DNA of 64,000 bases from Patescibacteria group bacterium (lineage in GTDB: Bacteria > Patescibacteriota > Patescibacteriia > 2-01-FULL-39-33), in assembly GCA_041662745.1 (NCBI GenBank), contig JBAZRV010000003.1:56034-120033 (forward strand), in the 5' to 3' direction. Each line of letters starts with the position of its first letter. Position 1 is the first letter of the stretch. Below are positions 4,353 through 55,149 of the stretch, in pieces. Under the pieces are notes generated by a model. That model was not told the DNA's origin. It did not search any database and worked only from the letters and a program-made list of their open reading frames with translations. Position numbers and translations under genes: made by a program.

Positions 4353-5411
4353 ATGAAAGAAAAACTTAGCCAATTAAAGGCGCAATTCACCGAAGAATCG
4401 GCAAAGGTCAAATCAGCCAAAGAGCTGGAGGAGCTGGAGAGTAGATTTTTGAGTCGTAAAAGCGGACTGCTGACCGGTATCATGAAGGAGATCAAGGATG
4501 TGGCCAAGGAAGAGGTGGCGGAAATCGGCGCTTTGGCTAACGAAACCAAGGAATATATCGTTGAGGGACTGGCAGCGCTTAAGGGCAATTTGGCCGGCGC
4601 CGGCTCTTTTAATTTTGATTTTACCGTGCCCGGCCATAAGCCGCCGGTCGGACATTTGCATTTATCAACCATTGCCATCCGCGAAATTGAAAGCATTTTA
4701 GAGCCGTTGGGGTTCAAGCGTGTTAGGCATCCTGATATTGAATGGGATTATTATGCTTTTGAAACCCTGAATATGCCCGGAGATCATCCGGCGCGCGATG
4801 ATTGGGAAACTTTTTTTATTGATGAAGCGCCGATTAAGATGAATTTGCCGGCTAATTCCAAAAAACTGGTCAAAGAGGGGAGACGGCTGCTCACTCCGCA
4901 CACTTCCAGCATTCAGGTGCGTGAAATGGAAAAAGGCGAACTGCCGATTCGGATGATGAATATTTCCAAATGCTATCGCCGGCAGATTGATGTTTCCCAT
5001 GTGCCGATGTTCCATCAGTTTGAAGGACTGGTGATTGACAAGGGGATTAACATCACCCATTTGAAAGGCACGATTGATTATTTTGTTAAGAAATTTTTCG
5101 GCGAAGATCGGGTTATTCGTTTGCGTCCGCATCATTTCCAGTTTACCGAACCGAGTTTTGAGGTGGATATTTCCTGCGGTTTGTGCAATGGCGCGGGTTG
5201 CAAGATGTGCAAAGAGGGCTGGCTGGAACTGGCTGGCGCCGGCATGGTGCACCCCAATGTCCTAAAAGCCGGAGGAATTGATCCGGAGAAGTATTCCGGG
5301 TTTGCTTTCGGTTGGGGTGTGGAGCGATGTTTCTCAATGAAATCGGGACTTAATATTGATGATTTGCGGTTGATGTATAAGAATGATTTGAGGTTTAATG
5401 AACAGTTTTAA
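4353..5411 (+). CDS. pheS: phenylalanine--tRNA ligase alpha subunit
   Basis: class II motifs: FPFTEPS-like region FQFTEPSFEVD, GAGMVHPNVL, FAFGWGVERC; RBS AGAGGGAG. Confidence 0.93.
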   Translation: MKEKLSQLKAQFTEESAKVKSAKELEELESRFLSRKSGLLTGIMKEIKDVAKEEVAEIGALANETKEYIVEGLAALKGNLAGAGSFNFDFTVPGHKPPVGHLHLSTIAIREIESILEPLGFKRVRHPDIEWDYYAFETLNMPGDHPARDDWETFFIDEAPIKMNLPANSKKLVKEGRRLLTPHTSSIQVREMEKGELPIRMMNISKCYRRQIDVSHVPMFHQFEGLVIDKGINITHLKGTIDYFVKKFFGEDRVIRLRPHHFQFTEPSFEVDISCGLCNGAGCKMCKEGWLELAGAGMVHPNVLKAGGIDPEKYSGFAFGWGVERCFSMKSGLNIDDLRLMYKNDLRFNEQF

Positions 5412-5435: not shown

Positions 5436-5984
5436 ATGGGTAACCAAATTAAAAACAACAAATTAAAATATCTATTTTGGCTATCAAGTATAGCCATAAT
5501 ATTTTGGATAATTTTTGGTCTCGGCTTGCAAAGGGATTATAAGAACTGCGGTAGTGCAATCTCTAAAATTTCCTTTTTTGGAATAGTTTTGTATGAGTAC
5601 GATAATCCGTGTCCTGTTACAAATACAAAAACACCAGAATTAAGTGACTTAGATATATTTTCGATAGAAATTAATAGGCATCCAAATTTGAGAGGATTTC
5701 CATTTTCTGAAGTTGTAGATTTTTCTCGTTTTGATAAAAGTAATTTGAAAGCTATTTGGATGATTATATCATTTGTTTCATTATTGAATTTGATTTTTTA
5801 TTTTGTTTTTTTTCAAATACTATTTAAAATTTTAGATAAGGTTAGTAACAATTATAGAAAAATAGTTTTTATAATTTTGATGATTACGATTTCTCTTATA
5901 TTTTTAATTATATCATCTATAAATGCCAAATATTCTTTAAGTTATTTAACTTTCTATTCAATTTTAACAATTTTTAAATTGTAG
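5436..5984 (+). CDS. hypothetical membrane protein (182 aa), strongly AT-rich gene
   Basis: long ORF in markedly AT-rich segment inserted between pheS and pheT; N- and C-terminal TM segments. Confidence 0.5.
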   Translation: MGNQIKNNKLKYLFWLSSIAIIFWIIFGLGLQRDYKNCGSAISKISFFGIVLYEYDNPCPVTNTKTPELSDLDIFSIEINRHPNLRGFPFSEVVDFSRFDKSNLKAIWMIISFVSLLNLIFYFVFFQILFKILDKVSNNYRKIVFIILMITISLIFLIISSINAKYSLSYLTFYSILTIFKL

Positions 5985-45746: not shown

Positions 45747-46763
45747 TTAGTTAATCAAACTGTGCAGACAACAGAATGGCGCCTGTCCGAATCTATCAAA
45801 ATGAGCTAAGGCCATGGATTTGCATCCGCCTTGGCACCAGGAATATTTTTTGCAGTTTTGGCAGATCCCCCCCGGTTGGCAATCGTCTCTAAATAACCTG
45901 ATAATCTTGTTGTCTTGTTGCCAAATTTCTTTTAATGTTTTTTGCCGTACATTACCCAAGATAAAGCGTTCATCCATTAACGATAAGCAGGGCAAAACAT
46001 TGCCGCAAGCATCAATTCCGACGGTCTGTTTGCCGGCGGTACAACCCGGCCAGCCTCGACCGCGCAAGAGAGTATAGTCATAACCGAAACAATCAGCCGC
46101 CCTGATATCCAAGCAGGATTGGTAAATGTTACGCAGTTTTATCAGGGCAAAGCAAGTTTCTCGGAATATTTCTTCGTTGATTGCCAACTCGCTATTATCT
46201 TTGGCCCGCCCGATAGGCGAAATCAGCTGAACTTGCCAGCCGGAAGCTCCGACTTTACGCAGGAGCTCGGCTAATTCAGGCAGTATTGCGTAATTCAGGC
46301 GACTGACGGTGGTAATGGCAATAGCTCGCAAGCCGATAGCCTTGGCTGTAGCGATAGCGTTTAAGGCCGTTAGCCAGGAACGGCTATGGCCACGGATATG
46401 ATTATGTATGGCTGAGTCGCCGTCAACGGAAACGCCGATAGTATGGGCGCCGGCGTCTTTAAGCCGCTGCGCCAGGCTGTCAGTCATGGTTAAGCCGTTA
46501 GTGATCAGGGCGAAGCTGATCTGCTCCTTTTGCAAACCGTCAAGCAGTTGCGGAAAATCATGTTTAATAGTCGTTTCGCCGCCGGATAATGCCAGTTGAT
46601 TCAAGCCCAGTTCTTGCAGTTGGCCAAAAACCCTTAGCCATTCCTCGGCTGTTAACTCGTCATCCTTAGGTTTTTTTACGCAATCGGAGCCGCAGTGCCG
46701 GCAATTGAGGTTGCAACTCGCGGTGGTTTCTATCACTGCGTTAGTGATTTTTTCATACAACAC
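45747..46763 (-). CDS. radical SAM/SPASM domain protein (338 aa)
   Basis: N-terminal CNLNCRHC (Cx3Cx2C) at residues 17-24, GGE motif LSGGETT; C-terminal SPASM Cys cluster ...CGNVLPC...C...GGICQNCKKYSWCQGGC. Confidence 0.8.
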   Translation of the reverse strand: MLYEKITNAVIETTASCNLNCRHCGSDCVKKPKDDELTAEEWLRVFGQLQELGLNQLALSGGETTIKHDFPQLLDGLQKEQISFALITNGLTMTDSLAQRLKDAGAHTIGVSVDGDSAIHNHIRGHSRSWLTALNAIATAKAIGLRAIAITTVSRLNYAILPELAELLRKVGASGWQVQLISPIGRAKDNSELAINEEIFRETCFALIKLRNIYQSCLDIRAADCFGYDYTLLRGRGWPGCTAGKQTVGIDACGNVLPCLSLMDERFILGNVRQKTLKEIWQQDNKIIRLFRDDCQPGGICQNCKKYSWCQGGCKSMALAHFDRFGQAPFCCLHSLIN

Positions 46764-52969: not shown

Positions 52970-53176
52970 TAGTCAGTCCTCCCTCGGTTTTTTGGTTGCA
53001 AGGATTTAATGTAATGAACACTAAAGTATTATAACGGATTGGGATAAAAAGTCAAGGTGTTATAAAACCTCGACATTTTCCAATTTTGCTCATATCTCGC
53101 TTCTGACTTGTTCCCGCCCCTTAATATTGTTATGACTTTTGTCAGAAAAAAAGCAAAACAAAAATCACGTCCATAG

Positions 53177-53247
53177 CTCGGGGACAGGGGCTCGAACCCC
53201 GATTAACGGCTTCAAAGGCCGCTGTCCTACCATTAGACGATCCCCGA
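53177..53247 (-). tRNA. tRNA-Gln (anticodon UUG)
   Basis: cloverleaf folded by hand: acceptor TCGGGGA/TCCCCGA, D-arm GTCT-AATGGTA-GGAC, anticodon stem GCGGC/GCCGT with loop CTTTGAA, T-arm CGGGG-TTCGAGC-CCCTG, discriminator G; CCA not encoded. Confidence 0.85.
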
Positions 53248-53559
53248 GTTATAGACGCGATTTTTCGTTAACTAACGTCTTACTTGATTTGAATTATTTA
53301 TATTTTTACTTATTATAAGGCCGGCCGGTCACCTTGGCCTCAAACTTCTTTTTTCTGGCGCTTTTCTTGTCTTCCTGTTTGACTAAGCGAGGCACCTTGA
53401 TCTTCGGATCCCTTTTTCTTTTTGCCATATGTTTATTATTGCTGGGGCAAAACCGAACTAATCTCAAATTAGAAAGTCGTCGGTTTTGCTGTTCTTTTAA
53501 TTAATCTATGTTTTATTCTAACAAATTTATCGCTGTTTGGCAAGATTTTGCCAAAAAAA

Positions 53560-54350
53560 AGAGCCCCCGTAACTTTGGTCGCACACCCATGAAACATTAC
53601 TATTTATTGGTGTGTGGCTAGTTGACGGGGGTCAAAATTAAAGGTGCTTTCGAATGGCGGGGATCGGAGCGTTTTTAGACGCTCTTTTCGGCCGGGTCCG
53701 GAAGAGGCTCCATCACAAAATTCCTGAGCCGCTAATGCGAGAGCTCCGCTAAACAACGCCGCGCTAACGCCCATTTCCATTACACTTTGGCAGCGCGAAC
53801 GATCAATGACCGATGGCGGACCTCATGGCAACAAACAAATCCGGATATTCGGGCCGCATCCTGCGCCCCGATCCCCAAATTCAGCCGGTTGGTGTTTATT
53901 CCTGAGGGGCCCGGCTTGCCCCTAAATACATCGTTGTGTATTTGGCATGTTTGGTTTCCTTTGGCGGCCGGGATTAACGCACCCCTTTCATTAACTGGTC
54001 GGTGCGCCTAACCACCTGGCAACAGGGCCGGGGCGCTGTCCAATATAGCGATCCCCTGCTATGCTTTTATCTACAAGTTGCCAGTTCGTTAACCCTCGTA
54101 ATTACACAAACCCCACGGGATAACGACTCATTAGGAGCCCTCCAGTTTTGTTTGGCCGATAGTTGGCCATGCCCGTTTTAACTATCCAGATGTTCGCCAA
54201 CGGGCGAGACTCTGGAAAAAACGATACTACTGCTGACTGTCAATGAGCTTGGTGAGCGCGAGACGGAAGCGGCCCTTAAGCCTAGGAATGGAACGAATAT
54301 GTTGGTTCCCCCACTTTCCGTCTCGCCTCACCTTTGAGCTTCAATCATAT
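53560..54350. ncRNA. unclassified GC-rich structured noncoding region next to tRNA-Gln (candidate large ncRNA or decayed element)
   Basis: ~1.3 kb without credible ORF; GC clearly above flanks; long-range helix 54253-54269/54317-54334 and many local GC hairpins (53903-53918 gaggggc-ccggctt-gcccc; 53622-53635). Confidence 0.3.
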
Positions 54351-54552
54351 CACATCGTTAATATTTTGTCAATAGCTTTATCCACAGGCAAATTATTAAT
54401 AATAAAAAATTAGTGTAAATTTAGCTAAAATAAATTAATTTATTTTATGATTAAAATGGCGATAATCCGCCATAGGCGGTTTTGCCGGAAAACAAACTTA
54501 AATAAAACTATAGACTTGCCCCAAGAGCGTCTATCAGTTAGAATGAAGTTGT

Positions 54553-55149
54553 ATGTCAGAATCAAATATCAAAAACCTTGTTGATAAATTTGCCAGATTT
54601 CCCTCAATTGGCCCAAAAACCGCCGAACGAATGGTGTATTACCTGCTCAGACAATCGCCGGAAAAAATGGACGAATTATCTTCGGCAATTCATCAACTAA
54701 AAAATAGCATTACCGCTTGCAATATTTGCTTTAATTTTAGCGAATCTAATCCTTGTCCAATCTGTTCCGATCTCCGGCGCGATCGTCGGATTATTTGTAT
54801 TGTGGCCAAACCGCAGGATATTTCAGCCATTGAGAAAACCGGCTCATATAACGGCGTTTATCATGTCTTAGGCGGCAATATCAATCCGCTGGAAAATATT
54901 ATGCCGGAGAATTTGCGGCTTAAAGAACTCTTGGCGCGCATCAAGGATAATGAAGCTTGCGAACTTATCCTGGCTTTGAATCAGGATATGATCGGTGAAA
55001 CCACCGCTTTGTATCTGTCTAAATTATTAAAGCAATTTTCTCAAGTGACGGTAACGCGTTTGGCGCGCGGCTTGCCCATGGGCGCTGATCTGGAATACGC
55101 CGATGAAGTGACTTTGGAAAGCGCTATTTCCGGACGCAGGGAATTATAA
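54553..55149 (+). CDS. recR: recombination protein RecR
   Basis: HhH N-terminus, C4 zinc finger CNICFNFSESNPCPIC, Toprim domain. Confidence 0.92.
   Translation: MSESNIKNLVDKFARFPSIGPKTAERMVYYLLRQSPEKMDELSSAIHQLKNSITACNICFNFSESNPCPICSDLRRDRRIICIVAKPQDISAIEKTGSYNGVYHVLGGNINPLENIMPENLRLKELLARIKDNEACELILALNQDMIGETTALYLSKLLKQFSQVTVTRLARGLPMGADLEYADEVTLESAISGRREL

Follow-up and report, generated by a model that had tools for sequence, protein, structure and literature searches.

Organization of the recR upstream region

The 64,000-nucleotide (nt) stretch of DNA analysed here, called the window throughout (assembly GCA_041662745.1, contig JBAZRV010000003.1, positions 56,034 to 120,033), comes from a Patescibacteria group bacterium that was placed in Candidatus Buchananbacteria by the relatives of its RecR protein. 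This lineage belongs to the candidate phyla radiation (CPR)/Patescibacteria, bacteria with tiny genomes and very little noncoding DNA. The interval 53250–54552, between a tRNA-Gln gene and recR, had been described in an earlier note as one GC-rich, highly structured 1.3-kb block with no credible open reading frame (ORF). It turned out to hold two minus-strand units rather than one noncoding block: a ~785-nt structured RNA containing a nine-codon micro-ORF preceded by a Shine–Dalgarno (SD) sequence and, downstream of the RNA, a promoter (P2) and a conserved 40-codon ORF, followed by the tRNA-Gln gene (Table 1). Both small ORFs had been missed and the strand had been left unassigned. The GC-rich character was borne out for the inner part, 53553–54338, where GC is 0.521 compared with 0.444 for the window (99.5th percentile among 785-nt windows), and not for the whole interval, which at 0.446 is average.

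Table 1. Features of the region between tRNA-Gln and recR (window coordinates).
Feature	Coordinates	Strand	Sequence or description	Basis
tRNA-Gln (UUG)	53176–53247	−	intact	ARAGORN; Rfam, 61.6 bits
40-aa basic protein gene	53306–53428	−	MAKRKRDPKIKVPRLVKQEDKKSARKKKFEAKVTGRPYNK; separate from the RNA	orthologs and codon differences
Promoter P2 of the 40-aa gene	53515–53543	−	TTGCCA, 17-nt spacer, TG-TAGAAT	consensus scan 10/12, TG extension
Predicted primary transcript	53553–54338	−	~785 nt	bounded by promoter and terminator
Intrinsic terminator	53553–53633	−	long hairpin GACCCCCGUCAAC ... GUUACGGGGGCUC, then U8 (53560–53553)	read from sequence
CU-rich tail	53634–53647	−	GCACCUUUAAUUUU; anti-SD-like, putative role	comparable segments in homologs
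3′ domain with long closing helix	53658–53877	−	5′ strand 53877–53863 UGGGGAUCGGGGCGC; 3′ strand 53672–53658 ACGCUCCGAUCCCCG	RNAalifold
Invariant hairpin	53906–53922	−	GGGGC-AAGCCGG-GCCCC; helix 17	unchanged in three window-clade sequences
Possible second mini-ORF	53922–53961	−	SD-like AAGGAAACC (53961–53953); AUG ... UAG at 53948–53922, MPNTQRCI*	uncertain
Hairpin domain	54015–54084	−	closed by CUGGCAAC / GUUGCCAG; helices 11 and 12	
Micro-ORF1	54102–54131	−	AUG AGU CGU UAU CCC GUG GGG UUU GUG UAA, MSRYPVGFV*	conserved in homologs
SD sequence	54139–54143	−	GGAGG, 7 nt 5′ of the AUG	GGAG(G) in 14/14 copies
Second hairpin	54173–54224	−	UCGUUUUUUCCAGAGUCUCGCC ... GGCGAACAUCUGGAUAGUUAAAACGG; helices 6 and 7	two double-changed pairs
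Candidate anti-start element	54235–54248	−	GCUCAUUGACAGUC; helix 5	predicted partner: SD-proximal and AUG region of micro-ORF1
5′ hairpin	54251–54332	−	GGUGAGGCGAGACGGAAAG ... CUUCCGUCUCGCGCUCACC	RNAalifold on three and four sequences
Promoter P1 of the RNA	54344–54372	−	−35 TTGACA (54372–54367), 17-nt spacer, extended −10 TGTGATATGAT (54354–54344)	consensus scan
Putative recR promoter, divergent	54516–54544	+	TTGCCC, 17-nt spacer, TAGAAT; recR ATG at 54553	consensus scan and sequence

The boundaries of the RNA unit follow from its promoter and terminator consensus and from their conservation. P1 scored 11/12 in the consensus scan and carries a TG-extended TATGAT; the TTGACA and the TG-extended −10 were kept in the homologs inspected. 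The transcription start was placed 6–7 nt past the −10 element and the 3′ end in the U8 run. The terminator was retained in the related loci L005 and L106, with compensatory changes; it was not listed by a simple terminator scan, presumably because its loop exceeds the 3–8-nt limit of that scan. On these grounds, 53553–54338 is probably an independent minus-strand gene for a structured RNA, and probably a highly expressed one.

Homologs and genomic linkage

Relatives of the RNA were found in 14 lineages including the window, all Buchananbacteria-like and ranging from ~340 to 965 nt: the window, L005, L106/L107 and L093+L108 (the window clade), and L007, L008, L037, L095, L096, L100, L101, L102 and L103 (the sister clade), with a variant in L006. 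Every homolog lies immediately upstream of recR and is transcribed divergently from it. Identical copies of the window RNA occur in other assemblies. The nhmmer/blastn searches with the window RNA against 84 recR loci returned L005 only; marginal promoter and terminator matches to L008 in a profile search led to the syntenic homologs. L005, in which RecR is 88% identical, has a full-length homolog of 72–73% identity with alternating invariant and variable blocks, and L106/L107 (one 958-kb contig) has a full-length homolog of 76% identity. L093 and L108 come from the same sample and overlap by 26 nt; joined, they give a third full-length homolog, an RNA of ~965 nt with blastn similarity around the micro-ORF only.

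In the sister clade, where RecR is ~60–65% identical, the unit lies between ybaB and recR, antisense to both, is ~340–880 nt long and has the same promoter type and a terminator, with no tRNA nearby. The RNA is thus linked to the region upstream of recR rather than to the tRNA. Since L009 and L097 have no insert, with ybaB and recR 36–118 nt apart, and since the spacing between these genes is only 10–200 nt in most Patescibacteria loci, the RNA is lineage-restricted. One metagenome scan for the pattern SD + ATG + core returned copies of four known loci only, so the family looks rare; because the pattern demanded both SD and ATG, the scan is no test of their conservation. A pattern scan of IMG/VR gave only chance matches inside phage genes.

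The earlier note had suggested, as one possibility, that the block was the decayed remnant of an element integrated at the tRNA. The unit does adjoin a tRNA gene, its GC differs from that of its surroundings, and it is missing at the same locus in the relatives L009 and L097. However, the search for direct repeats of tRNA fragments found matches of at most 8–9 nt, the level expected by chance, and there are neither flanking repeats nor an integrase ORF. Searches with blastn of 50,697 phage records and of 72,556 plasmids gave no match either. The promoter, terminator, helices and micro-ORF have been conserved under selection, and the sister clade keeps the RNA without a nearby tRNA. We therefore regard a decayed mobile element or pseudogene as largely refuted and very improbable. 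The conserved promoter and terminator, the homologs and the covariation described below instead support the main suggestion of the note, namely a large conserved structured RNA.

Conservation of the micro-ORF

The most conserved element of the RNA, and the only one recognisable in every homolog, is an SD sequence followed by an ORF of 7–12 codons; longer variants occur in L102 (14 codons each) and L006 (20 codons). GGAG(G) stands 6–13 nt ahead of the start in 14/14 copies, the start is AUG in all 14 counted copies (GUG in the L102 variants), and an in-frame stop follows one codon after G-[F/Y] in every one of them. Across the family, the core reads Y-x-[S/V]-G-[F/Y]-x-stop. Within the window clade, the window, L005 and L106 encode MSRYPVGFV, and L093+L108 encodes MSCYFVGYT. 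The sister-clade peptides are MEEYPSGFE (L007), MKYPVGYV (L008), MEYPSGFV (L037), MDNVRSYPSGFV (L095), MEYPSGFP and MNFSSGFT (the two copies of L096), MISYASGFP (L100), MYQSGFV and MEYPSGFV (the two copies of L101) and MEYPSGFA (L103).

The differences between copies are of a coding type. In the five core codons, non-consensus bases fell on codon positions 1, 2 and 3 in 5, 6 and 16 cases, and the Gly codon differed at its third base only (GGA/GGG/GGU). The offset from the AUG to the core was 0, 3, 6 or 15 nt, always a multiple of three. Between the window and L106, whose RNAs are 76% identical overall, the micro-ORF showed four sense differences, 4/4 of them synonymous third-position changes, in addition to a UAA/UAG swap. 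The micro-ORF signature did not occur among 1158 other SD-preceded short ORFs in ~1 Mb of related loci. This pattern suggests that selection acts on the amino-acid sequence of the micro-ORF, from which we infer that it is translated. Standard gene calling on copies of the locus listed the 40-aa gene and not the micro-ORF; GC-rich blocks that seem free of ORFs can thus conceal genes too short for gene callers.

Some sister-clade lineages have an 8-bp hairpin, with compensatory changes in its stem, that takes in the AUG together with the Pro-Ser codons. Neither L008 nor the window clade has this hairpin, yet both keep the frame and the peptide motif; we conclude that peptide-level selection is the common denominator and RNA structure an added layer. 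The window-clade start region can instead pair with a GCUCAUUG element farther upstream or with an adjacent GGCUC; the covariation here is suggestive and non-significant.

Secondary structure of the RNA

Folding was more stable than that of shuffled sequences on both strands, in line with the strong hairpins reported earlier. The minus strand was assigned from the promoter, the terminator, the G·U pairs and a pair-preservation test. Many G·U pairs were found on the minus strand only, where they correspond to A·C mismatches on the opposite strand. When L005 substitutions fell in pairs of the minimum free energy (MFE) structure of the window, 49–56% of the changed pairs were still paired on the minus strand, compared with 31% in the null, and 32–41% on the plus strand, compared with 37%.

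A consensus structure was built with RNAalifold from three window-clade sequences (the window, L005 and L106), with the fourth lineage added for the 5′ part. We left the cross-clade MAFFT alignment out of the covariation analysis because it was reliable at only a few anchors. The three-sequence consensus comprised 220 pairs, 19 of which had changed on both sides, compared with 8.6±2.1 in shuffled and 2–4 in slid controls. The 17-bp helix that the earlier note had seen between 54253–54269 and 54317–54334 is the minus-strand 5′ hairpin, and it covaries in the relatives: it showed double-sided A-U/G-C, C-G/U-A and G-C/A-U changes and gained more compensatory pairs with the fourth lineage. The hairpin noted at 53903–53918 is likewise real, and invariant in three relatives. 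In the candidate anti-start helix, one pair took four canonical forms across the four lineages, non-significant support with four sequences. In the domain at 54015–54084, the closing stem is invariant, also in L108, and the inner stem has five double-changed pairs.

Within the 3′ domain, RNAalifold predicted nested CGGCC/GGCCG and UCCGGA/UCCGGA stems and a branched tip. Over seven lineages, the 13–15-bp closing helix had changed on both sides in 10/13 pairs and was 96.7% paired, compared with 78% for shuffled and 37–55% for slid strands; the strands were extracted by hand, a choice that favours pairing, and it is on this helix that homology of the 3′ domain across the clades is based. CACCUU or UUCCUU follows the long helix in L005, L106, L108, L007, L008, L037, L101 and L100. 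A 58-aa minus-strand ORF in this region (53604–53780) was rejected as coding, as its differences from L005 were nonsynonymous and fit hairpin compensation.

A candidate dual-function RNA or micropeptide gene

We consider it probable, at about 0.6, that the RNA is an undescribed, lineage-restricted dual-function RNA or micropeptide gene. Transcription would start at the extended −10 promoter, back to back with the recR promoter, and end at the long hairpin and U8. About 195 nt into the RNA, past the covarying 5′ hairpin, GGAGG and AUG would open the nine-codon MSRYPVGFV frame, which stops at UAA. Pairing is predicted to occlude the start region, with the GCUCAUUG element or GGCUC as the partner here and within the local hairpin, with its compensatory change, in the sister clade, so that translation is probably gated by RNA structure. 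The remaining ~550 nt would fold into GC-rich helices, including the covarying closing helix, and end in the CU-rich, anti-SD-like tail. This 3′ part may make the transcript stable, add a second, noncoding function (for instance, pairing with SD regions or binding of a protein), or do both; because of that presumed second function, the RNA could work in the manner of RNAIII/hld. Translation, its gating and the roles of the 3′ domain and of the peptide are what we infer from these features. Some 800 nt of a tiny CPR genome would thus be given over to a strongly promoted structured RNA that is kept across the lineage; with its nine-codon frame under peptide-level selection, it offers a concrete, testable case of a possible dual-function RNA or micropeptide in an uncultivated group. 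To our knowledge, regulatory RNAs are almost undescribed in CPR/Patescibacteria, and micropeptides and regulatory RNAs are essentially uncharted there. If the peptide or its translation is regulatory, the RNA would be a new example of a translation-gated RNA and might give a handle on signalling or translation control in the CPR.

Several points weigh against this reading. The RNA is known from sequence alone, its 14 known lineages all belong to one CPR group, and the sequences are mutually related, so that the counts give too high a figure for independent events. Among the loci inspected, none of the genes near the RNA is a conserved partner (a modifying enzyme, an exporter or a receptor). 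The sister-clade hairpin (CAGAUGGA/UCCGUCUG) coincides with part of the peptide conservation, and RNA-level selection could therefore mimic part of the codon pattern. The Phe codon is UUU in 11/12 tabulated copies and offers few synonymous alternatives, and the peptide of the fourth window-clade lineage has diverged. The stop is UAG in 12/14 copies, while long ORFs in these loci end in UAA in 76–83% of cases and in UAG in 9–14%; the preference for UAG could thus reflect an RNA motif rather than termination. Finally, the thermodynamic z-scores, taken alone, favour the plus strand (−7.1, compared with −3.7 for the minus strand, with 20 shuffles each).

Some of these points would fit a structured RNA with no coding role at all, perhaps a scaffold that binds protein or associates with the ribosome, in which the SD-AUG-UAG array is a conserved motif or a protein-binding site. 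A nearly constant UAG, unlike the stops of the genes of these genomes, is what would be expected of such a motif; the sister-clade 8-bp hairpin changes in a compensatory way (CUGAUGGA/UCCGUCAG in L103 and AGAUGAA/UUCAUCU in the second copy of L096); and the covariation of the helices is independent of the ORF. On the other hand, the frame, SD, AUG, motif and stop persist in the window clade and L008, where the hairpin is missing, and third-base-only variation at Gly, AUG-to-core lengths in steps of three and synonymous differences within the window clade argue against a motif read only as RNA. We judge the purely noncoding alternative to be unlikely.

The short SD-preceded ORF with an occluded start, the long alternative-looking structures and the terminator also recall a cis-acting leader or attenuator, in which translating the micro-ORF would decide whether transcription runs past the terminator. 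Here it would continue into the 40-aa gene and tRNA-Gln, which come next on that strand, and in the sister clade it would enter ybaB in antisense. We find such a leader improbable. The downstream neighbour depends on the clade (the 40-aa gene and tRNA-Gln or convergent ybaB), the 40-aa gene has a conserved promoter of its own and occurs without the RNA in L014, L018 and L026, and the terminator, a strong one, is ~550 nt away from the ORF. A leader-peptide attenuator was rejected on the first two of these grounds.

Comparison with known RNAs and peptide genes

Known RNA families were sought with Rfam 15 at E ≤ 10 on 53100–54700, both strands, and at E ≤ 1 in nine homolog loci, and none gave a credible match to the RNA. 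Scans at gathering and permissive thresholds of the window and 21 related loci returned only tRNAs and one SAM (S-adenosylmethionine) riboswitch, as did the gathering-level matches in twelve related loci, and tRNA-Gln was the sole match at curated thresholds in all 64 kb. The riboswitch, a SAM-I element at 4740–4845 (−) of L026 (64.6 bits), lies in a Buchananbacteria-like metagenome-assembled genome and shows that standard riboswitch models work in such genomes.

A divergent member of a known family is suggested by the size, the ornate GC-rich fold and the adjacent tRNA, which resemble ROOL and GOLLD, by the short ORF within a structured RNA, which recalls transfer-messenger RNA (tmRNA), and by the position, as the signal recognition particle (SRP) RNA lies near dnaX-ybaB-recR genes in Firmicutes. 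None of the named candidates is supported. ROOL, GOLLD, OLE, HEARO and raiA gave no covariance-model match in either scan, and neither the blastn searches nor the housekeeping genes at the flanks indicate the phage setting of ROOL and GOLLD. RNaseP_bact_a/b gave no match in the window at E ≤ 10 or in the homolog loci, and the P4/CR-I (GAGGAAAGUCC) and CR-V sequences that RNase P RNA requires were not found. A CR-I-like segment pointed out earlier, GGAAAGUGGGGGAACC (54304–54319), lies in the variable tip of the 5′ hairpin and reads GAAAAGCGAAGAAGAAC in L005; the CR-II-like segment at 53974–53986 is partly conserved, the L005 hairpin there being shorter and diverged. For SRP RNA, there was no match to Bacteria_small/large_SRP, and the SRP-like GUCCGGAAG is on the plus, non-transcribed strand. 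ARAGORN reported tRNA-Gln only and Rfam no tmRNA; where tmRNA has a resume codon, this RNA has an SD and an AUG, and reading GGGGAUC...GAUCCCC-G-CCA as tRNA-like fails because the sequence after the long helix differs in other lineages and is not conserved as G-CCA. Group I and II introns gave no Rfam match, the unit has its own promoter and terminator, and tRNA-Gln is intact. The variable length and the absence of the RNA at this locus in close relatives are further points against a known family, be it RNase P, tmRNA, SRP, 6S, ROOL/GOLLD/OLE/HEARO or an intron, and we attach very little probability to it. Our literature searches on the peptide motif and on structured RNAs of the CPR found nothing relevant.

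ROOL, GOLLD and OLE do share with the present RNA a size of 0.6–0.8 kb, a GC-rich multi-helix fold and, in the window, a place beside a tRNA; the rapid turnover of sequence and length and the conserved SD-ORF set it apart, as do the lack of a covariance-model match and of phage association. Like tmRNA, it is a structured RNA with a short internal frame ending in a stop; unlike tmRNA, it has SD and AUG and no tRNA-like acceptor/T-arm or CCA end.

The closest functional parallel is with the dual-function small RNAs (sRNAs) RNAIII/hld, SgrS/SgrT, SR1/SR1P and Spot 42/SpfP, a functional comparison in which translation and the second activity of the Buchananbacteria RNA are predictions, and which draws partly on two reviews (PMC12310071, PMC12612679). 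Like these, the RNA reads as a stand-alone unit with its own promoter and its own terminator, several hundred nt long with many hairpins, in which a 5′ SD-ORF is followed by a long structured 3′ part with C/U-rich, potentially SD-pairing segments. There is no homology in sequence or structure, however; the ORF has 7–12 codons compared with 15–43 or more, and the RNA is larger than most and restricted to a CPR lineage.

The genes mccA (seven codons, microcin C) and bytA (five codons, biarylitides) likewise combine a tiny conserved SD-ORF with a structured, terminator-ended transcript and selection on the peptide. They sit beside modifying enzymes, whereas the RNA has no conserved enzyme, exporter or immunity gene beside it, and its ~550 nt of conserved structured RNA have no counterpart in them. 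A minimal gene for a ribosomally synthesized and post-translationally modified peptide (RiPP), or one of the microcin C type, was accordingly rejected: with recR, ybaB/dnaB or the 40-aa gene and tRNA-Gln as its neighbours, the RNA has no conserved enzyme gene nearby. The leader or arrest peptides of attenuators (tnaC, ermCL, and the cat-86 and cmlA leaders) resemble the RNA in their conserved residues near the stop, buried start and downstream terminator. They differ in that the RNA has no conserved regulated downstream gene, a variable residue before the stop and ~550 nt between ORF and terminator.

A more far-reaching possibility, which we hold to be doubtful, is that CPR bacteria have, in this RNA, a novel type of translation-coupled riboregulator or signal gene. 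We propose two versions. In the first, the nascent Y-x-(S/V)-G-(F/Y)-x peptide would pause the ribosome at UAG, a stop codon that is read by release factor 1 (RF1) only, and thereby remodel the 3′ domain and expose the anti-SD-like tail, which would act on other mRNAs. In the second, the peptide of 7–12 residues would itself be a leaderless signalling or bioactive molecule; if so, its gene would be among the shortest conserved bacterial genes, and the peptide would be made from an elaborate RNA that doubles as a regulator.

The 40-aa protein gene and other features

The claim that the interval holds no credible ORF was wrong for 53306–53428 as well, because the 40-aa gene has orthologs and its differences are mostly synonymous. 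Orthologs lie upstream of tRNA-Gln in five lineages (the window, L005, L014, L018 and L026), and eight relatives of the protein were found in protein databases. Between the window and L005, there were 12 synonymous and two nonsynonymous codon differences, and P2 is nearly identical in L005 and L106. The protein is very basic (MAKRKRDPKIKVPRLVK...RPYNK), and its gene is without an obvious SD. Searches of Pfam and NCBIfam with this protein and a 172-aa neighbour gave no match. Judged by its orthologs and codon differences, 53306–53428 is a real protein gene.

Within the RNA, the possible second mini-ORF has eight codons, and its frame and UAG stop are kept in L005 (GUG start, MLHRKRCT) and L106 (GUG start, MPKRKRCT); its substitutions are not coding-like. 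SD-preceded mini-ORFs of 8–16 codons, always ending in UAG, also occur in L007, L008, L037, L101 and L103. Their stops come directly ahead of the GGGGC hairpin or of the closing helix, and the peptide sequence is unconserved. Because the frame and stop are kept and the peptide is not, translation itself, and not its product, might matter here. In the 3′ domain, GAAUAUCCGGAUUUGU at 53835–53850 (−) resembles the sister-clade micro-ORF core GAAUAUCCGUCUGGAUUUGU, is 4 nt short and out of frame, and may be a degenerate second copy of the micro-ORF.

On the other side of P1, in the window as upstream of recR in most loci, the −10-like TAGAAT of recR stops 8 nt short of the ATG, and recR may therefore lack a leader. 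Many loci also have a palindrome of the ATCTAAATTTAGAT type between the divergent promoters of the RNA and recR. In neighbouring lineages, other small minus-strand units with a promoter and a terminator lie upstream of recR or in the ybaB–recR spacer, at L010 5330–5920, L015 340–850, L012 5650–5970, L022 930–1180 and L006 5360–5620; none is detectably similar to the window RNA, and those scanned gave no Rfam match. L006 has an SD and a 20-codon ORF, MKKNVRRKYGGQAVLGVVFT, with a start context like that of L007.

Farther away, a gene for a Radical-SAM/SPASM protein was mapped from L002 (16207–17223) to ~45747–46763 (−) of the window, ~7 kb from the micro-ORF and not adjacent to it; a tie to modification of the peptide would be speculation. 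In L026, a partial copy of the tRNA-Gln 5′ end, TCGGGGATCGTCTAACGG, lies at ~5682–5699 (−), ~190 nt upstream of the intact tRNA-Gln (5449–5519), with a GC-rich, hairpin-forming stretch between the two. It could be a tRNA pseudogene or an intron-related remnant, for which the group I introns in tRNA genes of Patescibacteria (PMC13011429) offer a comparison.

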